From contig JBAYHQ010000001.1 in assembly GCA_041666065.1 (NCBI GenBank), positions 1 through 50,586 of the forward strand: a stretch of 50,586 bases of DNA, given 5' to 3'. Position numbers and translations under genes: made by a program. This stretch comes from Minisyncoccota bacterium (GTDB taxonomy: Bacteria; Patescibacteriota; Minisyncoccia; Phycocordibacterales; Phycocordibacteraceae). This document shows positions 38,429-49,430 of the stretch, piece after piece. The notes under the pieces were generated by a model that was given only the letters and a program-made list of their open reading frames with translations, was not told where the DNA came from and did not search any database. Every line of letters starts with the position of its first letter. Within the stretch, counting starts at the first letter, position 1.

Positions 38429-39370
38429 ATGGATTTCATCAAGGAATTCGGTCAGCTCGGCAAGCACGACGCCGCTATAGCGGGCGGGAAGGGTGCTTCG
38501 CTCGGCGAAATGACGCAGGCGGGGATCCCTGTGCCCCCAGGGTTCGTCATCCTCTCCGGCGCTTTTGAACATTTCCTTGAAGAGACCGGCCTACATGCCG
38601 AGATTGACGCGACCCTGCACACCGTCTCTCCAAGCGAGATGCACACCGTGGAGCATGCTTCGGAGAAGATACAGGCGCTCATACTCGGCGCGAAGATGCC
38701 GGAGGACATCGCGACTGAAATACAGAAGCTCTTCGCGAAGTTAGATGCCGAGTATGTAGCGGTACGCTCAAGCGCGACTGCCGAGGACTCCGCGAGCGCC
38801 GCGTGGGCGGGTCAACTGGACAGTTTCCTCAACACGACCGACGACACGCTCCTCACGAACGTGCAGCGTTGCTGGGCCTCGCTCTTCACCCCGCGCGCTA
38901 TCTTCTACCGATTTGAGAAAGAGCTCCATACGCAGAAGATCTCGGTCGCGGTGGTGGTGCAGAAGATGGTGCAGAGCGAGGTTTCCGGCATCGCCTTCTC
39001 GGTGCATCCGGTGACCGAGGACTACAACCAGCTCATCATTGAAGCGGGCTTCGGCCTCGGCGAGGCTATCGTCTCCGGCTCGGTCACGCCTGACAGCTAC
39101 GTGGTGGAGAAAGAGCCGCGGCGTATCATAGACAAGAACGTCACGTACCAGAGCCGCGCGCTCTGGCGCGCGGAGAACGGCGGCAACGAGTGGCGTGCTC
39201 TCTCCGAGACAGAGGGCACGAAGCCCGCACTCTCCGACGAGCAGGCGCTTGAGCTCTCCGAGATTATCCTGCGCATTGAACGCCACTACGGCTTCCCATG
39301 CGACATTGAGTGGGCGTACGAGGCGGGGACATTTTTCATCACCCAGTCTCGCCCGATCACCACGCTTGCT
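38429..39370 (+). other. domain: PPDK_N-type ATP-grasp nucleotide-binding domain (only copy in the operon)
   Basis: The domain runs from the start to FITQSRPITT, with the canonical PEP synthase / PPDK / rifampin phosphotransferase N-terminal motifs. Confidence 0.8.
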
Positions 39371-42300
39371 CCGCTCGCGGTAAAAGATGAAGCTGAGTTT
39401 ATCTCCCCAGAGCTCGCGCGTTTTCCACGACAGGATTACGAATTCGTAGGCCGGTGGAAAAGCGATTTGTTCACCGGATATTTTTGGAATTATTGGTTTA
39501 GGAAGGAGATGCTCAAGAAACTCGATTTCTCCGTACCTTTTTCGGGTTCGCTCGGATTGAAAGGCGGCAACACTTTTTATCACAAGCAGGTTGTGCAGTG
39601 GGGTTCGGATGAGATGCAGCGAATGCTTGCGGACCACTTAGAGACGCGTTCAAAGAGATTCAGAGACAGTGCCGAAAAAGATTTTGCAGAACTTCTGAAA
39701 AAGGCTGACTCCTTCGCGGAGAGTATGCCAGACCAAAACAATTTCAAGCAAGTCGTTGATGCGTATCAGGACTTCATGCTGTATTTCCTTACGGCCAATC
39801 TTATAAGCCCTCACTTTGATCCGCTGATTGCTGAGAAAGCAGTTGAGGAAGGCGTGCCCGCCGAAGACGTCGTCAGTCTGATCCCGAAATTCCCTGCACA
39901 GATTGAGACTCAGCATGCGGATGCGAGAAGGCTACTCGGTCTTCTGAAGAAGAAATCACTTGACGCATTACTCGGCGTTGATACAGAGAAACTCGTTATT
40001 GCGATTAACACAGATAAAGAGCTCAAGGGTGAATTTGAAAAACATCTGAAAGAGTTCGGCTGGCTGGAACTGTTGAACTTCGTAGGGGCGCCTCTTTCGC
40101 TGGAACGTCTTTTAGGCCAATTGAAAACGGCGTCGGGGGCAGAACAGGCGCACGAGCACGCCGCTCACGCGTACAAACTCTCCGATGAATTCAAGCACCT
40201 GCTCAAGACTGCGGCAGACATAGGTTTCGTACGTCAAGCGGCGGCTGAGACTTCCTCTATATTCCACTACAAGCTCATCTCGTATCTTGAGAAAACTGCG
40301 CAGGCGCTTGGTCTCACGTATCGGGAAATGCTTAACCTCGTCCCTCCTGAAATTGTCCAAGGATTGAGCGGTGCGAAATCGCACGAGGAACTGAAACGAA
40401 CTGCTGAGAAGAGGGCGGGATATAACTGGCTCGTGTACGGAGATATCGCGACAGAGAGCCTCATTGTCATAGACGAGAAAGAGGATGTGGAGAAGATGTG
40501 CTCGCTCATGATCCCCACTGCAGATGAAGGCGCTGATACGCTCGGCGGACAGATCGGGAACAAGGGGAAGGTGCAGGGGAGGGTAAGTGTGATCATGGCG
40601 TCCGACGATTTTCACAAGTTTGTAGAAGGGAATGTGCTCGTCACGACCATGACGACGCCCGACTTCGTCATCCTGATGCAGAAGTCGGTCGCGATTGTGA
40701 CCGACATCGGCGGCATGCTCTCCCACGCCTCCATCGTCTCGCGCGAGCTAGGGAAGCCCTGTGTCATCGGTACGAAGTTCGCCACGCAAGTCCTCCGCGA
40801 CGGTGACCTTGTGGAGGTAGACGCTGACAGCGGGGTGGTGCGCATATTGGAGCGCACAGGGTCGAGCCCTGCTGTGCTCGTCGACCCAGATAAGGAATTG
40901 CTCATTATGAGAGACCGGCCGTCAATGTTGTCTCCTGTGTACTGGAATCAAGTCCTTCAGATTAGCGATGAAGTAAAAGAGATATACGGTGATGTTCTAA
41001 GTACCGAATACACGACTCATTCAAACGGGAGAATGAGCTCGGTAATGATAAAGAATGAATGGAATAGGGTTGGGGATTTCATAGCAAACAAAATAGTAGA
41101 TAGTGAAGAATACTTTAAGAAAATTGTGCGGAAGACGGAAGAATCTAAAAAGCACATTCAGTCTTTTTTAAAAGAAATAGCTGAAGAGAATTTAGAGAAT
41201 CTTAACTTTGACGAGCTGACTAAAAAAGTCGAGACGATTAGGGACCTGTTTTTTGAATACGATGCTGCCAGTGTGTTCGCTTGGTTTGTCGCTGGAGATC
41301 AAATTAAACAGAAGATTGATTCAATTCTCAAGTTATCAAAAGAAGATTTGGATATACTCTCTCTTCCCAAAGAAAGAACCTTTGCCTCTCAAATGGAGCA
41401 AGAGGTTTTAGAGGTGGCTGTTGCTACTTCAAAAGATATTGAAAAAGAAGCTGAGAAGTTAGAAAAACGATTCTATTGGATTCTTTTTGGTTATGACGGT
41501 CCAACGGTGTGTGATAAAAATTATTTCATTGAGCAGATACAGATGCATCGAAAAGAAATGTCTGAGACAAGAAAAAGACTTGCTGAAATCAAGAGTACTG
41601 AAAATGATATTAGAGACAAAAGAGAAATAATTATAAAAAGGGAGAGCTTCACAGAAGCCGACGAACGTCTCATAGATATTTTGCGCCGCATTACTACTTG
41701 GACCGACGAAAGAAAGATGTTGGATTTCCAACTCTTCTACCATCACAATAGAGTCCTGACTTCTATAGGCTCAATGTTTGGAGCCTCTATTACGCAGATG
41801 AAGTATCTTTTCACCCACGAATTAAGAGGCCTTAAGGAAAAACACAAAGAGCTACTGATTGAAGCCGATAAGCGTATACAGAATGATTTTATTGTCATAA
41901 GTCATGGGGACACCTTAAGGATAGCCTCCGATGAGGAGAAGGCTCTCTTCAAGAAAGTGATAGATGCCCAACTCAAACATACCGAGGTAAAAGGCAACGT
42001 GGCTAGTGCCGGCCCCCAGAAGACATATCGTGCTGTAGCGAGAGTATTGCTGTCTCCAGCCGAGTGCTCAAAGGTCAAGGGTGGAGAAATAATGGTGGCA
42101 ACAATGACTACGCCGGACTATGTTCCTGCCATGAGAAATGCTCTTGGTTTCATAACTGATGAGGGTGGAGTCACGTGTCATGCTGCTATTGTTGGGCGCG
42201 AAATGAATAAACCATGCATTATAGGGACCAAGGTAGCCACCAAAATCCTAAAGGATGGCGATTTCGTGGAGATGGACGTTAATAACGGTGTGGTGCGTAT

Positions 42301-43414
42301 ATTGGAGCGGACAGGGGATGCGGCGATAAAGAAAAGTCTGGTGTGGAATCCTCAAGCGGCGAATAGCACTGTCATCGAGCAGATAGAAAGCACTGATTGG
42401 CGTCAGGACTGGTCAGACGTATACAGCACCATTGAGGCGTCCTTAGACATAGATTCGTATTTCGGCGTATTTGAGAAAGTCTGTGGGACAAGCTTCTCCA
42501 GCATAATGCTTATCTTTGACGGGGACACGACGGTCTGCTGGAGCCCCACTAACGAGTCTGAGGAGCTTGGGACGCATCTGGTACAGAAAATGCTTGATCC
42601 TGTATTCCTCAAGCAGTGGGTCGCCGCATACAAGTCTCACGCTGACACTCTTACTGAGTTCGTTAAGTTGCCGTTTGACGAGTTTCTCAAACGTCTCCCT
42701 GAATATAAAGAGAGGTACCCTTACCTCGCCCCGCACGTCATCGGTACGAAAATAGCTTTTAATCTATTGCCGATGGGGCACGAGGATGTCGCTGCGGAGC
42801 TTGAGGCGGCGCGTCGGTACACCGAGATGTTCTACAAGAATTCCACGCACGTCATGAACGAGTTGTGCGCGCACATCGCGAAAGAGAAGGGATACAGTTT
42901 GAAATCGATACGTGCCTTGTCGGTAGATGAGCTCTGTGAGTACGGTCAGACTGGCGTGCTTCCTGAGGAGAGTGTGTTGGAGGCACGGTCTGCTATAAAG
43001 GGCATCTATCTAGAGAAGGGGCGGCAGCATACGCTATCTGCCGACGATGTCTCCGACATACAGAAATCATGGCAGACGAGCGTGGAAGGCGACACTTTGA
43101 AAGGTGCGAGTGCTTATCCGGGCATCGTAAGGGGCGTATGCCGTGTGGTCATAGACTATCGTACTGCATCAGTAGATGACGGGGAGGTGCTTGTAGCGAC
43201 CATGACCGACCCGCGATTTGTTCCGTTCATGAAGAAGGCGGCGGCCATAGTGACTGATGGCGGTGGTATGCTCTCGCACGCGGCCATCGTCGCGCGCGAA
43301 CTCAAAGTGCCGTGCGTCGTGGGGACGAAGCTCGCGACACAAGTCCTCCATGACGGCGACCTCGTGGAGGTAGACGCTGACAGCGGGGTGGTGCGCATTC
43401 TGGAAAAAAAATAA
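38429..43414 (+). CDS. 1661-aa tri-modular PpsA/RPH-like phosphotransferase: PPDK_N ATP-grasp domain + three (helical domain + phosphohistidine swivel) modules, no PEP/pyruvate TIM barrel
   Basis: The N-terminus has GGKGASLGEM, VAVRSSATAEDSASAAWAGQLDSFLN and FITQSRPIT (PPDK_N). Three swivel domains carry TTMTTPDF..IVTDIGGMLSHASIVSRELGKPCV, ATMTTPDY..ITDEGGVTCHAAIVGREMNKPCI and ATMTDPRF..IVTDGGGMLSHAAIVARELKVPCV. Confidence 0.85.
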   Translation: MDFIKEFGQLGKHDAAIAGGKGASLGEMTQAGIPVPPGFVILSGAFEHFLEETGLHAEIDATLHTVSPSEMHTVEHASEKIQALILGAKMPEDIATEIQKLFAKLDAEYVAVRSSATAEDSASAAWAGQLDSFLNTTDDTLLTNVQRCWASLFTPRAIFYRFEKELHTQKISVAVVVQKMVQSEVSGIAFSVHPVTEDYNQLIIEAGFGLGEAIVSGSVTPDSYVVEKEPRRIIDKNVTYQSRALWRAENGGNEWRALSETEGTKPALSDEQALELSEIILRIERHYGFPCDIEWAYEAGTFFITQSRPITTLAPLAVKDEAEFISPELARFPRQDYEFVGRWKSDLFTGYFWNYWFRKEMLKKLDFSVPFSGSLGLKGGNTFYHKQVVQWGSDEMQRMLADHLETRSKRFRDSAEKDFAELLKKADSFAESMPDQNNFKQVVDAYQDFMLYFLTANLISPHFDPLIAEKAVEEGVPAEDVVSLIPKFPAQIETQHADARRLLGLLKKKSLDALLGVDTEKLVIAINTDKELKGEFEKHLKEFGWLELLNFVGAPLSLERLLGQLKTASGAEQAHEHAAHAYKLSDEFKHLLKTAADIGFVRQAAAETSSIFHYKLISYLEKTAQALGLTYREMLNLVPPEIVQGLSGAKSHEELKRTAEKRAGYNWLVYGDIATESLIVIDEKEDVEKMCSLMIPTADEGADTLGGQIGNKGKVQGRVSVIMASDDFHKFVEGNVLVTTMTTPDFVILMQKSVAIVTDIGGMLSHASIVSRELGKPCVIGTKFATQVLRDGDLVEVDADSGVVRILERTGSSPAVLVDPDKELLIMRDRPSMLSPVYWNQVLQISDEVKEIYGDVLSTEYTTHSNGRMSSVMIKNEWNRVGDFIANKIVDSEEYFKKIVRKTEESKKHIQSFLKEIAEENLENLNFDELTKKVETIRDLFFEYDAASVFAWFVAGDQIKQKIDSILKLSKEDLDILSLPKERTFASQMEQEVLEVAVATSKDIEKEAEKLEKRFYWILFGYDGPTVCDKNYFIEQIQMHRKEMSETRKRLAEIKSTENDIRDKREIIIKRESFTEADERLIDILRRITTWTDERKMLDFQLFYHHNRVLTSIGSMFGASITQMKYLFTHELRGLKEKHKELLIEADKRIQNDFIVISHGDTLRIASDEEKALFKKVIDAQLKHTEVKGNVASAGPQKTYRAVARVLLSPAECSKVKGGEIMVATMTTPDYVPAMRNALGFITDEGGVTCHAAIVGREMNKPCIIGTKVATKILKDGDFVEMDVNNGVVRILERTGDAAIKKSLVWNPQAANSTVIEQIESTDWRQDWSDVYSTIEASLDIDSYFGVFEKVCGTSFSSIMLIFDGDTTVCWSPTNESEELGTHLVQKMLDPVFLKQWVAAYKSHADTLTEFVKLPFDEFLKRLPEYKERYPYLAPHVIGTKIAFNLLPMGHEDVAAELEAARRYTEMFYKNSTHVMNELCAHIAKEKGYSLKSIRALSVDELCEYGQTGVLPEESVLEARSAIKGIYLEKGRQHTLSADDVSDIQKSWQTSVEGDTLKGASAYPGIVRGVCRVVIDYRTASVDDGEVLVATMTDPRFVPFMKKAAAIVTDGGGMLSHAAIVARELKVPCVVGTKLATQVLHDGDLVEVDADSGVVRILEKK
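40541..40861 (+). other. domain: swivel (PEP-utilizers mobile) domain 1, His codon 40724-40726
   Basis: LGGQIGNKGKVQGRVSVI...GGMLSHASIV...DGDLVEVDADSGVVRILERTG. Confidence 0.85.
41987..42316 (+). other. domain: swivel domain 2, His codon 42179-42181
   Basis: VKGNVASAGPQKTYRAVARVL...GGVTCHAAIV...DGDFVEMDVNNGVVRILERTG, encoded in AT-rich DNA. Confidence 0.85.
43097..43411 (+). other. domain: swivel domain 3, His codon 43277-43279
   Basis: LKGASAYPGIVRGVCRVV...GGMLSHAAIV...DGDLVEVDADSGVVRILEKK. Confidence 0.85.
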
Positions 43415-44701
43415 ATGGAAAAACTCTCTTGGCTTTCTTCAAAAGAAGGTGCTGATGTGCGTACTATCATCACTCACTTCTGGGACACGCTCTCCACTAA
43501 AGCGTATCCAGTAACTAAGGGTACGATGCGCGTCCCTATCTCTCTTGAGCCTTTCACTCTCTCGCGCGAAGAATATGAGAACCTTAATAAAAATCTGCTT
43601 CTGGTTATTTCGGCGGCACGGAAACTTGCCGAACACTATTTTACCGACCAAGACTTGCAGACGATATTTAGCCTCAATGCAGCCGAAGTTGGTTTGATTG
43701 AAGCCTCAAAGGACGAACCGTTTGTGGGAATCGTGAGAGCCGACCTCTTCTATGGCGCTCAACCGAAGTTGGTGGAACTTAACACCGATTTCCCCGATGG
43801 GTTCTTCATGCATGATGTGACCGCGCAGACTATTCAAGATCTCCTGCCGGCACACTACGAGACTAACTCAAACGCCGCGCTATTTCAGAGACTGCTTGAA
43901 TCAGCAGGAGTTAGTAAGCAAGACCATATTTTCATTGGCTATGATAAAGGCAGGAAGTTCATAGACGAATTCGCCCTAACGCAACGTACGCTAGAAGGGC
44001 AGGGGTGGAAGCGTGTAAGTTACGGCGCTATTGAAGATTTGGAATATCGAGATGGTGTCTTTTATTGGAACGATGAACCGGTACAAGTCATCCGGCGTGG
44101 CGTGGAGACTTCAAAAATGCGCGCGAATACAGAACTCTTGGCGAATATCACGCGGGCACAGCGAGATTCTGGACTTAAGGTAATCAACAACTTCAAGATG
44201 CGCCTGCTTGGGCACAAGTCCCTTCTGGCGGCACTCTGGGACACGCGATTTGAAAAATATATGAGCGACGAGGAACTCGGAGCGGTTAAGTCTCTCGTCC
44301 CCGAAACATTGAAGTTGGAAACGGCAGGTTTGGAGAAAATATCCATAGAAAAAGATGGGTGGGTACTAAAGCCCTCCGACCTTACTGAGGGCGAAGGTGT
44401 CGTCATAGGCTCTGCATGCAGCGCCACCGAGTGGTCGGCGAGTATTGAAGAAGCACTCAAGAATCCGCGAGCGTGGCTTCTGCAACGCAAGGCAGATATT
44501 CCTAAAGACACGTTCTCCCTGTTCAACGCTGAGACCGGCGAGACCCACTCGTCGGAGATGAGCTACGATCTAGATCCGCATATCGTCCTGTTTAGAGACC
44601 ACGCCGAAATGGGCAATATGCTCGTGCGATTCTCCCCGTCGGAGATACTGAACGTCATGAAAGGCGGCGGTTTAACCTACGCTTTCGTAGGAGTAGAATA
44701 A
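43415..44701 (+). CDS. ATP-grasp ligase of the glutathionylspermidine-synthase-like / circularly permuted type-2 ATP-grasp group
   Basis: VGIVRADLFYGAQPKLVELNTDFPDG resembles the R-x-D...K-L-x-E-x-N-x-D-x-P signature of GspS-like amidoligases. GWVLKPSDLTEGEGVVIG is an ATP-grasp strand-loop motif. The ATG directly follows the TAA of the giant ORF, in the same frame. Confidence 0.6.
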   Translation: MEKLSWLSSKEGADVRTIITHFWDTLSTKAYPVTKGTMRVPISLEPFTLSREEYENLNKNLLLVISAARKLAEHYFTDQDLQTIFSLNAAEVGLIEASKDEPFVGIVRADLFYGAQPKLVELNTDFPDGFFMHDVTAQTIQDLLPAHYETNSNAALFQRLLESAGVSKQDHIFIGYDKGRKFIDEFALTQRTLEGQGWKRVSYGAIEDLEYRDGVFYWNDEPVQVIRRGVETSKMRANTELLANITRAQRDSGLKVINNFKMRLLGHKSLLAALWDTRFEKYMSDEELGAVKSLVPETLKLETAGLEKISIEKDGWVLKPSDLTEGEGVVIGSACSATEWSASIEEALKNPRAWLLQRKADIPKDTFSLFNAETGETHSSEMSYDLDPHIVLFRDHAEMGNMLVRFSPSEILNVMKGGGLTYAFVGVE

Positions 44702-44707
44702 ACATCT

Positions 44708-45835
44708 ATGGCTGACAAAGAGATTCTTTCTGTTGATTGGCAGCTCTGGATACAGCGGAAAGGGCTAGATATCTTCAGCGTCAGCCTATTCCATATAGAA
44801 GAAGAGGGGCTTCTGCGCGCTGTCATCGGTGGCGGCACTTCAAAGCAGCTCTGTGTCTGCGAGGGCGATGATTATCTGTTTATTCGCTCAACAAGCGACT
44901 TTGCGCAGATGTATAACGACATCGCGGCGTTCATCCGTAAGCAGCCCCTCGGATATTTTGAGAAAGTATTTGAGAAAGCTCGCACGATGCCTGAGGTGAC
45001 CCGCGATCTCATCAAGCGAGTTTCTGGCTATTCCGACACTGAAGTGGTAGAGAACTTCCAAAACATCACTGACGATATCATGGCCGTCATTCTCTATAAC
45101 ACCTCTATTCCGTATTTCTTGCTGTCAACGCTGGAGACGCACGCTGATATACCGCCGGCTCACTATGACCTTCTCATGCGAGAGTCTGAGAAATTGCGCG
45201 CGACATCGCTCTTCCATGACCTCATGACCTCTGTGTACGGGAGGATATTTGATGTGTTATCGCGCCGTTTCGGAGTGGAGAGGGCCCATGCCTCATTCCT
45301 CTCGGTAGAAGAAATGGCCGACATGGTAAACGGGAAAGCCGCCGCGCCAAGCGCGAATGAGCTCGTCGCACGAGAGAAGTGTGTCGTGTGGATGGACAAA
45401 ACGCAGAACAGGACGCTCTTCTCCTACGACGAAGGGCTTCGCGAAGAAATAAAAGAACGGGTGTGGAATCAGCTTAAGCCAAGAGTGGACGCTAGTGGAG
45501 CATCGCTGCTGAAAGGGAATACCGCCTTCGGCGGCAAGGTGTCGGGGGCTGTGAAGATCGTCACCTCTGCCGCCACCATGGCCAAGATGGCCAGAGGAGA
45601 CATCCTCGTCGCCCACACTACGAACCCAAGCTTGATGCAGGCTATCTCGCTCGCAGGTGCAATAGTGACCGATGAGGGCGGTATCGGCTGTCATGCCGCT
45701 ATCGTCGCCCGCGAGCTGAAAGTACCGTGCATCATCGGGACACGAATCGCGACTCAAGTCCTCCACGACGGCGATATGGTTGAGGTAGATGCCAACAACG
45801 GAGTGGTTAGGATAATAAAGGGAATTGTTACATAA
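44708..45835 (+). CDS. stand-alone module: about 267-aa helical domain + C-terminal phosphohistidine swivel domain
   Basis: The C-terminus reads LLKGNTAFGGKVSGAVKIV...AHTTNPSLM...IVTDEGGIGCHAAIVARELKVPCIIGT...DGDMVEVDANNGVVRII. The swivel spans about 45509-45826 and the His codon is 45692-45694. Confidence 0.8.
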   Translation: MADKEILSVDWQLWIQRKGLDIFSVSLFHIEEEGLLRAVIGGGTSKQLCVCEGDDYLFIRSTSDFAQMYNDIAAFIRKQPLGYFEKVFEKARTMPEVTRDLIKRVSGYSDTEVVENFQNITDDIMAVILYNTSIPYFLLSTLETHADIPPAHYDLLMRESEKLRATSLFHDLMTSVYGRIFDVLSRRFGVERAHASFLSVEEMADMVNGKAAAPSANELVAREKCVVWMDKTQNRTLFSYDEGLREEIKERVWNQLKPRVDASGASLLKGNTAFGGKVSGAVKIVTSAATMAKMARGDILVAHTTNPSLMQAISLAGAIVTDEGGIGCHAAIVARELKVPCIIGTRIATQVLHDGDMVEVDANNGVVRIIKGIVT

Positions 45836-46662
45836 TGAGGAGCATGGGAAAATTTGAGAAATTGGCATCTGCCGGATACTTAGATAAAACTCGCGAACAA
45901 AGCGCCCGTAGGAGCATAAGTTCTGAGGAGTACCAAGATTTGGAAAAGAAGATGTCTTCGCGTCTTACCGACCAACCATGGGAGAAAGAGGGGAGTATGA
46001 GATTCTCTATTAAAGGGGAGGGCGAAGACGCTCTCCCCACCTCATTTTCTATAGAATACGACTCAGAGAGCACCCCTGAGTTAGAAAAATATCGCCACCA
46101 AATACGCGGATGGACGCCGGATGACGACATGGACGACATGGTGACCATAAATATGGGTACGTTTAGGAGGATTAAGGACTTAAGGATTGAGCATGCCGGA
46201 AATAAATTTGATATGCGAGCGGCAGTTAGGAATCTGGACGTTTATACCTACATCGGGAACGAACCTCGCAAGCAAGTCATAATCAAAGGCCAACATGGTG
46301 TGTATGGTCTTCGTTCTCGCCACGCAGAGATTATCTTCACTACATTTGACCCGACCTCTATCTTCGGACTTATGGTATTACTCCATGAAATAGGGCATGA
46401 AGTAAAAGAGTCAGCCTACACAATAAAAGAGAGCGGCTTTAAGAAGCAAAGCGGCGCAAAGATTGAAAATGGTGAGGCTACGACTGTCGCCGAAAAAGTA
46501 AGCCTGATTGAAAACGAAAGATCAGCTGATGCTTTCGCATTACACACACTGTACCGCCTGATGGGCAAAAATGTTGATATGACCAAGATAAATAAAATAT
46601 TCCATTCTGGGCAGTCTGGAGCTCAGGGGAGACTAAAGTGGAGTCCTGATGCAAAGCTGTGA
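45835..46662 (+). CDS. hypothetical HExxH protein (putative zinc-dependent hydrolase/peptidase)
   Basis: LLHEIGHEV (HEIGH at 46384-46398) is followed by ENERSADAF, which could supply a Glu ligand. GC is lower (hand count 43% for 46141-46200). The start overlaps the previous stop (TAATG). Confidence 0.5.
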   Translation: MRSMGKFEKLASAGYLDKTREQSARRSISSEEYQDLEKKMSSRLTDQPWEKEGSMRFSIKGEGEDALPTSFSIEYDSESTPELEKYRHQIRGWTPDDDMDDMVTINMGTFRRIKDLRIEHAGNKFDMRAAVRNLDVYTYIGNEPRKQVIIKGQHGVYGLRSRHAEIIFTTFDPTSIFGLMVLLHEIGHEVKESAYTIKESGFKKQSGAKIENGEATTVAEKVSLIENERSADAFALHTLYRLMGKNVDMTKINKIFHSGQSGAQGRLKWSPDAKL

Positions 46663-46684: not shown

Positions 46685-47704
46685 ATGGAGAAAATCGTAT
46701 TGCAGAAGAATTACTCGCGAGACTTCACGCTCATATTGGAACAGTTGTGGGTGGGCGCTTTCAAGCGGAACATCAAAGCCGAGTACGGTTTTGAAACGCC
46801 CTATCCACCATACGTGGTGCTACATGTGACAGACGAAAATCTGGAGATATGGGAGCACGAGAAGGCTATTGGCTCTTTTCAAGATTGGCTACTGGAGAAG
46901 AATACTGTGAGCACCGATTTCCTGCGGCAGATAGTACGCGAGTACGAAGACTTGATGGCGGTAATAGAGGGCCACTGGAAGAGGGGCGGCACGAAAGATC
47001 TTGAGACTATCGCGGAGTATCTAGCAGCCTCGGAAAAAGCGGTAACACTCTTCTGTATCTGGTACTACTCGTGTATAGACGAACGGACGCCGGAGACGGC
47101 GCAAGCGATCGCTCGTCCGCTCCGCGAGAAGGACGAGTTCTTCGCGAAGAACGACAAGCACATCAAGGACTGTGTCGTGGCTCTCGGTGGGAAGCGGGAA
47201 CTGGCAAATCTTATCCTGCTCTCAGAATTCCCGAACATTCCGAGTGAGGAGACGCTCCGAGCCCGCACGAGTGGCGTCGTGGTCGTAGACGCCGACGAGG
47301 TATTCTTCTCTCCGCTTCCACAGTTCGCTGCGGAGCACCCAGAATACGTATTTGAAGATTTACAGCCGATCACCGAGACTCCCAAAGAGCTTTCAGGAAG
47401 TATCGCCTACAAGGGCTCGGTCACGGGGAGGGTACGGGTTGTGAAGAACGTGCGCGCGATGGATGGCGTCCACGATGGCGACATCATCGTGTCGCCCATG
47501 ACCACACCAGATTTCATAGCGGCGATGCGGAGAGCGGCAGCATTTGTGACCGATGAAGGCGGCATTATGTGCCACGCTGCCATCGTCGCGCGGGAGATGA
47601 AGAAGCCCTGCATCACGGGTACAAAGTTCGCCACGCAAGTCCTCCGCGACGGCGATCTTGTGGAGGTGGATGCCGATAGGGGAGTCGTACGGATATTGAA
47701 ATAG
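46685..47704 (+). CDS. stand-alone module: about 235-aa helical domain + C-terminal swivel domain
   Basis: The C-terminus reads LSGSIAYKGSVTGRVRVV...SPMTTPDFI...FVTDEGGIMCHAAIVAREMKKPCITGT...DGDLVEVDADRGVVRIL. The His codon is 47573-47575. Confidence 0.8.
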   Translation: MEKIVLQKNYSRDFTLILEQLWVGAFKRNIKAEYGFETPYPPYVVLHVTDENLEIWEHEKAIGSFQDWLLEKNTVSTDFLRQIVREYEDLMAVIEGHWKRGGTKDLETIAEYLAASEKAVTLFCIWYYSCIDERTPETAQAIARPLREKDEFFAKNDKHIKDCVVALGGKRELANLILLSEFPNIPSEETLRARTSGVVVVDADEVFFSPLPQFAAEHPEYVFEDLQPITETPKELSGSIAYKGSVTGRVRVVKNVRAMDGVHDGDIIVSPMTTPDFIAAMRRAAAFVTDEGGIMCHAAIVAREMKKPCITGTKFATQVLRDGDLVEVDADRGVVRILK

Positions 47705-47706
47705 GT

Positions 47707-48750
47707 ATGGACAAGGCCCCACGAAGTCTTGATTTGTTCGGGTACAGAGACTTCACGCTGGCGACGGCCCAGATAGGGACTGAGGCCGAGTCGCTCGGAC
47801 TGTATCTTGGTGACTTCAAACTCGCGCAGCCGTATTTCGTAGTGGAGAGGAGAGAAGGGAAGTCAGGGTACTTCATTGATACTGCGCAAGTGAATCGGCA
47901 GAAAGAAATTATTCTGGAGAAAATCGAAGCTGATAAAGGCTTTGTAGACACGCTCATAGACACCTCGGCGGGATATTACGACGAGCTTGAGTCGGCGCTC
48001 ACGGAAGGACGGCCGCTCTCGCGAGCTGAGTTCTCAGGTCTCGTAGAGCCCTTCATTAACGCATGGAGCTGGATGGCAGGGTGGTGGTGGGCGACAGAGG
48101 CGATGGAGGAGAGGAATCTACACCCTGAACTGGTGGAGAAAATAATGGTCTTCAGAAGAAAGACCGAAAAAATCATCCCGCAAATTGACCACCTCACCCG
48201 CGTGACCGCAGAGACTCTTTACCCAGAAATCACGGAGTACGCAGATGCACTTACAGTAGAAGAAATAATAAACGGGAAGATACCTTCGGAGAGCGAATTG
48301 CGGGAAAGGATGCACCACCATCTCGTCGTGAACAACAAGGTCTTTACCGGCGAGGAGATAGACAAGGTTCTGAGCGACATGGGAATAATCCTGACCGTGC
48401 CAGAAGTGACTCATTTCAAAGCGGCGGACGGTACGCTCACAGGACAGACAGCTTACAAGGGGAAGTACACCGGCAAGGTATCTATCGTGTTTACCAGAGA
48501 AGATGCGGGCGATTTCAAAGCAGGCGACGTGCTCGTAGCGAGCTCCACGACGCCCGACTTCATACACGCTATCAAGAAGGCGGGCGCTATGGTCGCCGAC
48601 GAAGGTGGTATCATCTCGCACGCAGCCATCACAAGCCGCGAACTGAAAATCCCGTGCATCATCGGCACAAAAATAGCGACTCAAGTCCTCCGTAATGGAG
48701 ATGTTGTTGAAGTGGACGCAGACAATGGTATCGTTAGGATACTTTCATAA
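47707..48750 (+). CDS. stand-alone module: about 243-aa helical domain + C-terminal swivel domain
   Basis: The C-terminus reads LTGQTAYKGKYTGKVSIV...ASSTTPDFI...MVADEGGIISHAAITSRELKIPCIIGT...NGDVVEVDADNGIVRIL. The His codon is 48619-48621. Confidence 0.8.
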   Translation: MDKAPRSLDLFGYRDFTLATAQIGTEAESLGLYLGDFKLAQPYFVVERREGKSGYFIDTAQVNRQKEIILEKIEADKGFVDTLIDTSAGYYDELESALTEGRPLSRAEFSGLVEPFINAWSWMAGWWWATEAMEERNLHPELVEKIMVFRRKTEKIIPQIDHLTRVTAETLYPEITEYADALTVEEIINGKIPSESELRERMHHHLVVNNKVFTGEEIDKVLSDMGIILTVPEVTHFKAADGTLTGQTAYKGKYTGKVSIVFTREDAGDFKAGDVLVASSTTPDFIHAIKKAGAMVADEGGIISHAAITSRELKIPCIIGTKIATQVLRNGDVVEVDADNGIVRILS

Positions 48751-48751
48751 C

Positions 48752-49108
48752 ATGTACACCATACGGATTATTGAAGGGGAAATAACCAAGCCAGAGCTTC
48801 GCCGTATGGCCGAAGAGATATTTGGCGACATGGTGAAAGGTACGGCTGATATTACAAAAGATACGATGGCGCTCGGAGGCGAGATGCACATAGACAGTAA
48901 CCAACTACTGCTCGACACGGGTTCGGAGCAACAGAATGTCTGGGGTTTTAACATTTATCCAGATCAGCCAGTAGAGAGCTGGATAGAATACAATTCCTTG
49001 GTTAACATAAAACCGGTTTTGGGGAATAGGTCACCAGATATTCTAGATGCCAGTGTCAGAGAAAAAATAAAAGACATCGTCCTAAAACACGTCTCGTTAC
49101 ATGAATAA
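48752..49108 (+). CDS. DUF5674-like small protein
   Basis: MYTIRIIEGEITKPELRRMAEEIFGDMVKGTADITKDTMALGGEMHIDSNQLLLDTGSEQQNVWGFNIYP...NIKPVLGNRS matches my recollection of the DUF5674 pattern (FGDMVKAVVDI...ELHAD...LWGINLYP). The family name needs HMM confirmation. Confidence 0.55.
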   Translation: MYTIRIIEGEITKPELRRMAEEIFGDMVKGTADITKDTMALGGEMHIDSNQLLLDTGSEQQNVWGFNIYPDQPVESWIEYNSLVNIKPVLGNRSPDILDASVREKIKDIVLKHVSLHE

Positions 49109-49430
49109 TATACACACCGAGACAATCAACACTCGATGGAGTCAGTTCACACTGGCGCAACAGATGGCTAGCGTGGCAAGCGAGTTCGCCAGACTCTCTT
49201 CTTGGTGCGCGAAAGGGAACGAGACCCTTGCAAAGAGTTCGGCCGCGAGGACTATAGACCTCGTAGACGCAATGCTGCGTGATAGCCGATGGAAGGGCCG
49301 AGAACTTGAGTTCAGGAATCTCAAGGTGGCGGTTGAGTCTATGGTCGCGCCGGAACATTTTGGAACAGTTGGTGGGGAGGCGGTACAGCGTAGCCTCGCG
49401 CCTTTTTTCGCCCTCGCAGCCCTATCGTAA
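49101..49430 (+). CDS. small helical hypothetical protein
   Basis: The 109-aa ORF overlaps the previous gene by 8 nt and the next by 1 nt (TAATG). I recognise no family. Confidence 0.5.
   Translation: MNNIHTETINTRWSQFTLAQQMASVASEFARLSSWCAKGNETLAKSSAARTIDLVDAMLRDSRWKGRELEFRNLKVAVESMVAPEHFGTVGGEAVQRSLAPFFALAALS

Follow-up and report, generated by a model that had tools for sequence, protein, structure and literature searches.

A predicted ATP-grasp amide ligase and an HExxH protein inside a modular phosphohistidine kinase island of a Minisyncoccota bacterium

We have analyzed two genes, coding for proteins of 428 and 275 amino acids (aa), that lie among phosphohistidine swivel genes in a contig of a Minisyncoccota bacterium from groundwater (GCA_041666065.1, contig JBAYHQ010000001.1, positions 1 to 50,586; this whole stretch of 50,586 nucleotides is called here the window). 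A structural model and conserved residues indicate, with high confidence, that the 428-aa protein works as an ATP-dependent carboxylate-amine ligase. For the 275-aa protein, which carries an HExxH motif, profile homology to Peptidase_M78 and conserved motifs make a divergent zinc metalloprotease of the ImmA/IrrE type the best interpretation. The reading that we favor, with moderate confidence, is that both genes code for known kinds of enzymes and form optional cargo of a variable island built of modular kinase genes, rather than a fixed ligase-hydrolase pair. The tie of the ligase to clusters with many swivel domains, similar to those of rifampin phosphotransferase (RPH), is real but facultative, optional in both directions, and the HExxH gene looks like an independent and recent insertion. 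The term cassette is used below for a helical domain plus a phosphohistidine swivel, the unit from which these kinases are built.

The ligase and its relatives

The AlphaFold model of the 428-aa protein, built on 30 homologues, had a predicted local distance difference test (pLDDT) of 92.3 and a predicted template modelling score (pTM) of 0.91. Compared by Foldseek with the PDB, the model matched 48 chains of the circularly permuted ATP-grasp clade, all with E-values of 6e-8 or lower and with template modelling scores over the query (TMq) up to 0.76. The best folds were those of the glutathione and homoglutathione synthetases of plants, human and yeast (PDB 2hgs, 3kal, 5oes, 1m0w; E about 1e-17, TMq 0.70-0.76). 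After them came Cp1B (PDB 9cjn; E 6e-17, TMq 0.72), the CP_ATPgrasp_2 protein 3n6x (E 2e-16, TMq 0.60), YgiC/YjfC (PDB 7uk8, 7uk6; E about 1e-13, TMq 0.60-0.66) and GspS (PDB 2io7; E about 1e-12, TMq about 0.65). The match to classical ATP-grasp enzymes such as LysX was far weaker (E about 1e-5). At the sequence level, Pfam gave sub-threshold matches to GSP_synth (PF03738, 21.8 bits versus a cut-off of 29.3) and to CP_ATPgrasp_2 (PF14403, 19.1 bits versus a cut-off of 32), and some of the homologues have weak precomputed hits to these same families. The single sequence found nothing significant in the PDB and had no match in NCBIfam, PADLOC or PHROGs. Fold, sub-threshold Pfam scores and conserved catalytic motifs all support the initial annotation, made from the sequence alone, that had described a GspS-like ATP-grasp amidoligase, and place the protein with the circularly permuted enzymes that resemble GspS and glutathione synthetase.

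Three motifs stand out in the family. Residues 108-129 (RADLFYGAQPKLVELNTDFPDG) hold the R-x-D...E-x-N-x-D-x-P stretch, in which R108, E121, N123, D125, P127, D128 and G129 are invariant in the 30 homologues and D110 is kept in at least 90% of them; in an hhalign comparison this stretch aligned with SRLDL...PKLLENNADTP of Escherichia coli YgiC. Residues 317-332 (VLKPSDLTEGEGVVIG) form the K-P...E-G-x-G loop, with K319, E325, G326 and G332 invariant (as is K268, which precedes the loop), and the family profile aligned this loop to YILKPIRSGKGDGIVFG of Cp1B (E 2.1e-5), the only PDB sequence that it found. The C-terminal R...GGG stretch aligned weakly to RVALREGSLVVNSSQGGG of 3n6x. We take these conserved residues to be the Mg2+/ATP and acyl-phosphate-site residues known from human glutathione synthetase and E. 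coli GspS, the E-x-N and K-P...E-G-G motifs presumably corresponding to E144/N146 and K364/E368 of the human enzyme. By analogy, ATP and Mg2+ would be held by E121, N123, E325 and K319, a carboxylate would be activated as an acyl-phosphate, and the amine of an amino acid, a peptide or a polyamine would attack it to give the amide.

A canonical role as glutathione synthetase or GspS was considered and rejected. The circularly permuted ATP-grasp fold is shared with the glutathione synthetases, but the identity is only 12-15% and the protein is shorter (428 aa versus about 470). Besides, neither family of gamma-glutamylcysteine ligase (PF04107, PF04262) had a match in the genome, which is 97.75% complete, so that glutathione chemistry is unlikely. 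The enzymes of the GspS type (GspS itself, YgiC/YjfC and 3n6x) have a similar fold, and YgiC also the R-x-D...E-x-N-x-D-x-P motif. They differ in that Pfam found no CHAP amidase or any other extra domain in the 428-aa protein, in the Pfam scores below the gathering thresholds and in the partner genes, and the comparison of the ligase profile with E. coli Gss by hhalign was not significant. A polyamine acceptor is still conceivable, since the genome has one weak match to Spermine_synth. Cp1B is a stand-alone small-molecule amide ligase that joins epoxysuccinate and an amino acid in the fungal E-64 pathway, and its structural neighbors also include homoglutathione synthetase and the peptide-spermidine ligases YgiC/YjfC (PMC12568646). 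Unlike the window ligase, Cp1B comes from a fungus, where its gene is part of a defined biosynthetic cluster; the identity is 14%, and there are no epoxysuccinate pathway genes in the window genome.

Searching clusters among 5.8 billion proteins, we found 46 homologues of similar length, and their hosts were only bacteria of the Candidate Phyla Radiation (CPR; Kaiserbacteria, Paceibacterota, Parcubacteria and Saccharibacteria) or DPANN archaea. The 30 that were aligned are 37-68% identical to the 428-aa protein. The family appears at 13 loci among 185,579 species genomes, and in none of 400 other genomes of the same class. We regard it as a rare accessory that has spread horizontally among CPR bacteria and DPANN archaea. 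Its surroundings are diverse. In one locus (L065, 6349-20404) the homologue, P0020, lies in a defence-like island with GmrSD, DNA methylase, MutH-like, SLFN-type helicase and MazG-like genes. In a DPANN archaeon (L002, 11402-12232) it is followed by a RIO-like kinase of 276 aa (Pfam RIO1, E 0.0011) with an HSDPHLDN motif, and in L008 a weak kinase-like gene is convergent with it.

The ligase beside multi-swivel clusters

Fifteen ligase neighborhoods were informative, including the window, although these loci are few and partly related. In five of them a multi-swivel cluster adjoins the ligase. Apart from the window, these are a Kaiserbacteria relative (L001, ligase 68% identical) and the loci L008, L051 and L052. 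In L001 the order is gltX, M23 peptidase gene, ligase and giant swivel gene, with ligase and giant gene swapped with respect to the window, and there is nothing in the same stretch but the ligase, a giant gene with three cassettes and LMWPc. In L008 five swivel genes, a stand-alone PPDK_N gene and His_Phos_1 genes are divergent from the ligase. The L051 ligase stands between two swivel arrays, of six and five genes; after it come genes for an M20 amidohydrolase, an OTCase-like protein and another M20 enzyme. The L052 ligase precedes an LMWPc-like gene and seven PEP-utilizers open reading frames (ORFs) with one His_Phos_1 gene among them. Gene order and orientation vary therefore among the five, the four loci outside the window having differing arrangements. 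In the ligase tree, the five swivel-linked genes fall in two separate and well-supported clades. As a background we counted the swivel domains per genome in the 400 other genomes of the class, and found at least four in 7 and at least three in 14 of them (2-4% of genomes). Since a third of the ligase loci, in two lineages and with several arrangements, adjoin such clusters against a background of 2-4%, the adjacency is far above chance.

The association is not obligatory in either direction. No swivel genes were found within 7-10 kb of the ligase in 10 of the 15 informative loci, and no ligase was found in four multi-swivel relatives that carry 4, 4, 8 and 12 swivel domains. Two further candidates were dropped: a specific cassette partner of the ligase, there being no cassette type common to the five linked clusters, and a conserved ligase neighbor, as none appeared besides the swivel genes. 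In L051 (10001-15037), both M20 amidohydrolases carry an HACGHD or HGCGHD motif.

The HExxH protein

The 275-aa protein gave nothing in Pfam (at threshold), in NCBIfam or in a single-sequence search of the PDB, and neither this protein nor the two small proteins coded further downstream (DUF5674 and a helical protein of 109 aa, p109) had a match in PADLOC or PHROGs. A word-indexed homologue search returned only the protein itself, or one relative when the family profile was used. By exhaustive search we found 28 relatives of 250-315 aa, with 26-35% identity and E-values down to 2e-23. The alignment of the family (26 members, 23-30% identical to the window protein) has only seven invariant columns, and four of them are H184, E185, H188 and E228. 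R229 is kept in at least 90% of the members, and D232 of the ENERSAD motif is not conserved (D, S or T).

In one of the genomes the family profile had a weak hit to a protein that Pfam identified as a true M78 member (3.7e-26). Aligned with this protein by hhalign, the HExxH family gave a Prob of 93% (E 3e-7) over the preceding strands and the HExxH helix. With 15 true M78 proteins of CPR bacteria the values were Prob 84% and E 7e-6 over 106 columns, with HExxH falling on HExxH and E228 on the Glu of the M78 'E.EAN.FA' motif. In these alignments the HE[IL]GH motif of Peptidase_M78 (PF06114; IrrE is PDB 3dte) and its downstream Glu in 'E..A..FA' both have putative counterparts. Unlike in M78, the spacer between HExxH and Glu is longer, about 40 residues with an extra helix, and the family has an N-terminal half of its own, about 110 residues long. 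The structural model (pLDDT 88, pTM 0.88) has a mixed alpha/beta fold, with the HExxH motif in a helix (176-192) that follows a beta-sheet and E228 in a later one (218-246); in its Foldseek search IrrE appeared only at rank 48 (E 5.6). The helical setting, the invariant Glu in a later helix and the M78 profile homology place the motif in a plausible catalytic context, as the initial annotation had supposed when it named this protein a hydrolase. The idea that the protein is a decayed N-domain of a cassette was rejected, given its mixed alpha/beta model and its lack of similarity to any cassette.

The 275-aa protein would then be an M78-like zinc metalloprotease that probably joined the operon recently and independently. 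Known ImmA/IrrE proteases cleave repressor proteins at specific sites. The initial annotation had pointed out that ligases of this kind often come with a hydrolase that reverses or processes their product, but the nearest family here consists of site-specific proteases and not of enzymes that undo a ligation; the protein more likely cleaves a protein or peptide target than the ligase product.

The neighborhoods of the family are also different. HExxH-family genes are near swivel or ligase genes in none of 13 loci outside the window (12 from other genomes plus the locus of P0064). There is no overlap between the 13 genomes with an HExxH homologue and the 14 with at least three swivel domains, and the family was not found in the multi-swivel relatives. 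Side by side, the ligase is found with swivel genes in 5 of 15 loci (two clades) and the HExxH family in 0 of 13, and the four multi-swivel relatives lack both. A conserved neighbor of the HExxH family was sought and dropped; the only one was the pair DUF5674 plus p109 near the L043 homologue. There (7833-10426 of L043, genome G256) the DUF5674/109-aa pair is 1.2 kb from the HExxH-family gene. In L066 (815-3115, genome G287) the DUF5674 and 109-aa genes come directly after a swivel gene, as in the window. DUF5674 is present in 97 of the 400 genomes of the class. In L067 an M78 gene lies beside DUF5674 and p109, and we judged this to be coincidental because the M78 and DUF5674 genes are apart in nine other genomes that hold both.

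Base composition

The housekeeping genes that flank the island have a GC content of about 59-60%, and of 68-78% at third codon positions (GC3). The cassettes have 52-55% and the ligase 49.5%, so that the composition of the ligase fits the island and not the backbone, and in L001, L008 and L051 it is likewise that of the swivel neighbors. The HExxH gene has the lowest value, 45.3% (GC3 47.8%). In L051 the first M20 gene, after the ligase, is compositionally foreign, with 51% GC in a locus of 35%.

Organization of the locus

The genes form one run of closely packed genes on the plus strand, located 3' of gltX and an M23 peptidase gene (Table 1). Both ORFs and the four motifs that the initial annotation had quoted from them are present where it had reported them, and the tight junctions to swivel genes on both sides, read at sequence level, also stood. 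The TAA of the giant gene is followed directly by the ATG of the ligase (0 nucleotides), six nucleotides separate the ligase stop from the ATG of the 375-aa swivel gene, the TAA of the latter overlaps the ATG of the HExxH gene by one base (TAATG, -1), and 22 nucleotides follow the HExxH stop before the 339-aa swivel gene. No terminator-like sites were found between the operon genes on the plus strand. At 43404-43417 of the window, the giant and ligase genes share the frame with one TAA between them, after a run of eight A. A fusion by read-through is not a conserved feature, because the ligase precedes the giant gene in L001, the closest relative.

That the flanking genes are swivel genes, another statement of the initial annotation, is confirmed by Pfam (PEP-utilizers, E about 1e-23 to 1e-26); they also match NCBIfam models of the rifampin phosphotransferase/PRK06241 type, covering the swivel and part of the preceding domain. 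The giant protein has a PRK06241/RPH-like architecture by NCBIfam (in Pfam, PPDK_N at 2.7e-96 and PEP-utilizers three times). In contrast to rifampin phosphotransferase and the PRK06241 kinases, one PPDK_N domain serves here many cassettes. To our knowledge, no gene for an ATP-grasp amide ligase or an M78-like protein has been described among those of the RPH/PRK06241 type.

Table 1. Positions in the window of the genes of the island and of the conserved motifs in the two proteins under study.
Feature	Position	Strand	Basis
Giant protein, 1661 aa: a PPDK_N ATP-grasp domain plus three cassettes, each with a PEP-utilizers swivel	38429-43414	+	Pfam
Predicted ATP-grasp carboxylate-amine ligase, 428 aa, glutathione-synthetase/GspS-like circularly permuted clade	43415-44701	+	Model, Foldseek, homologues
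R108-x-D110...E121-x-N123-x-D125-x-P127-D128-G129, predicted Mg2+/acyl-phosphate site	43736..43801	+	Conservation
K319-P-x(4)-E325-G326...G332, predicted ATP-phosphate/Mg2+ loop	44369..44410	+	Conservation, Cp1B alignment
R405-F...N413...G417-G418-G419...Y422, C-terminal motif of the ligase	44627..44680	+	Invariant in 30 homologues
Stand-alone swivel cassette, 375 aa, between ligase and HExxH gene	44708-45835	+	Pfam PEP-utilizers 6.3e-23
HExxH protein, 275 aa, divergent Peptidase_M78 (ImmA/IrrE)-like, putative zinc metalloprotease	45835-46662	+	Profile comparison, motifs
LLHEIGHEV, residues 182-190; H184-E185-I-G-H188, putative zinc-binding/catalytic motif	46384..46398	+	Invariant, M78 alignment
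ENERSAD, residues 226-232; E228-R229-S-A-D232, E228 as putative third zinc ligand	46516..46530	+	Invariance, M78 alignment
Swivel cassette, 339 aa, downstream of HExxH gene	46685-47704	+	Pfam PEP-utilizers 5e-26
Swivel cassette, 347 aa, downstream of HExxH gene	47707-48750	+	Pfam PEP-utilizers 7.7e-23
DUF5674 protein	48752-49108	+	Pfam 1.4e-32
Helical protein, 109 aa (p109)	49101-49430	+	
N-domain of another cassette, cut by contig end	49430-50584	+	

Size and usual accessories of the multi-swivel clusters

The genome, of 669 kb, carries 13 PEP-utilizers swivel domains. Five more than those of the window are on contig C19 (10337-16013 of L017), one of them cut at the contig end, together with two His_Phos_1 genes, and after these come the HhH-GPD and LOG genes, which also flank the shorter island of L001. 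Very probably the operon continues on C19, which would join the last gene of the window. In that case there are very likely about 11 cassettes at one locus, followed by the two His_Phos_1 and the HhH-GPD/LOG genes. Single frames of 3114 aa (at least seven swivel domains) and 3188 aa (at least five) are found in the relatives G418:C24 and G092:C15, so the multi-cassette giants grow far beyond the 1661 aa of the window.

The regular accessories of these clusters are phosphatases: His_Phos_1 (with the RHG motif), HAD-like, LMWPc and HD. The most regular non-kinase gene is His_Phos_1 (L008, L052, L059-L063 and L017), whether or not there is a ligase. This suggests a cycle of phosphorylation and dephosphorylation. 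Ligases and metallohydrolases are occasional extras.

Alternative explanations

The initial annotation had put phosphorylation, ligation and hydrolysis on one substrate. Such an integrated pathway would have swivel kinases, ligase and HExxH hydrolase work successively on a single metabolite, peptide or carrier protein, and there is a precedent in the LysW system, where ATP-grasp ligation, a kinase step and the final release by a metallopeptidase take place on one carrier-bound substrate. The single strand, the translationally coupled junctions without intergenic terminators and the repetition of the ligase beside swivel clusters (five loci, two clades) would all fit, as would L051, where the ligase, both M20 genes and the OTCase-like gene lie between two swivel arrays. 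However, the part of this idea that stands is the link between ligase and swivel genes, and even this is missing in 10 of the 15 loci, without any conserved partner cassette. No link between the HExxH family and swivel or ligase genes appears in the 13 other loci or genomes, the multi-swivel clusters of four relatives do without both genes, the window HExxH gene and the first M20 gene of L051 are foreign in composition to their loci, and the HExxH protein resembles the site-specific proteases of M78 and not small-molecule amidases. We consider the pathway unlikely. At the other extreme, the stretch from the M23 peptidase gene to HhH-GPD could be an insertion hot spot and both genes mere passengers, with no functional tie to the kinases. 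Relatives such as L001 do hold different content in this stretch, the composition is a mosaic, and ligase homologues are found as well in other variable or defence-like regions (L065). Against this, the ligase adjoins swivel clusters in two clades, with four different arrangements, and in L001, L008 and L051 its composition is that of the swivel genes; with only 2-4% of genomes having such clusters, adjacency by chance is very improbable. We regard the passenger explanation, too, as improbable. For the 275-aa protein there is a separate possibility, that the HExxH-E residues form a structural metal site, or that it is an inactive regulatory or adaptor protein with a new fold. A confident model for which neither a zincin nor another fold was found in PDB or BFVD points in this direction, as does the lack of a Pfam or NCBIfam family at threshold. 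But not only the two His, also the catalytic Glu of HExxH is invariant, and the M78 profile alignment extends from the preceding strands through the HExxH helix to the Glu helix, so we hold a non-hydrolase to be quite doubtful.

This leaves optional cargo as our preferred reading, and several observations weigh against it. The neighborhood counts are based on a small number of loci, and some of these are related. The junctions of 0, 6 and -1 nucleotides are so tight that they also fit an obligatory co-function, and the ligase followed by M20 in the L051 swivel cluster is a second pairing of ligase and metallohydrolase, which favors a pathway. As for the HExxH protein, the protease assignment comes from profile comparison and motifs. 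The Foldseek search of its model gave no zincin match (best E 0.86 in PDB and 0.30 in BFVD), Peptidase_M78 of Pfam is below threshold in all family members (four weak hits, best E 0.0023), and no helix-turn-helix repressor of the Xre, ImmR or DdrO type lies beside the gene, both neighbors being swivel cassette genes. Direct results are the fold and motifs of the ligase, the invariant motif residues and the M78 profile similarity of the 275-aa protein, and the neighborhood counts. From these we infer the chemistry of both enzymes, a class of substrates common to ligase and cassettes, and the separate arrival of the HExxH gene. Specifically, the ligase probably acts on the same class of amino-acid- or peptide-like small molecules that some of the cassettes phosphorylate.

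A more speculative proposal, which we think has rather little chance of being right, is that the rare ligase family belongs to the multi-cassette phosphohistidine kinases of CPR bacteria as a dedicated but optional module. It would build or re-join an amide-linked small molecule that particular cassettes phosphorylate and that embedded metallohydrolases (M78-like here, M20 in L051) and His-phosphatases dismantle. If true, ligase, cassettes, hydrolases and phosphatases would be a previously undescribed toolkit to conjugate, phosphorylate and hydrolyse host-derived or toxic metabolites.

Implications

A tiny CPR genome (about 0.67 Mb) nevertheless holds 13 phosphohistidine swivel domains together with accessory enzymes. 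Sorting out which genes are true accessories of the kinase clusters narrows the search for the substrates of these clusters. Treating the HExxH gene as a one-off insertion keeps an unsupported three-step pathway out of the annotation, and its family would represent a divergent new branch of ImmA/IrrE with a new N-terminal domain. For substrate screening, the ligase family offers a clean target, rare and well folded. That it recurs next to the clusters is so far the sole comparative hint that some of the cassettes handle amino-acid- or peptide-like carboxylates.

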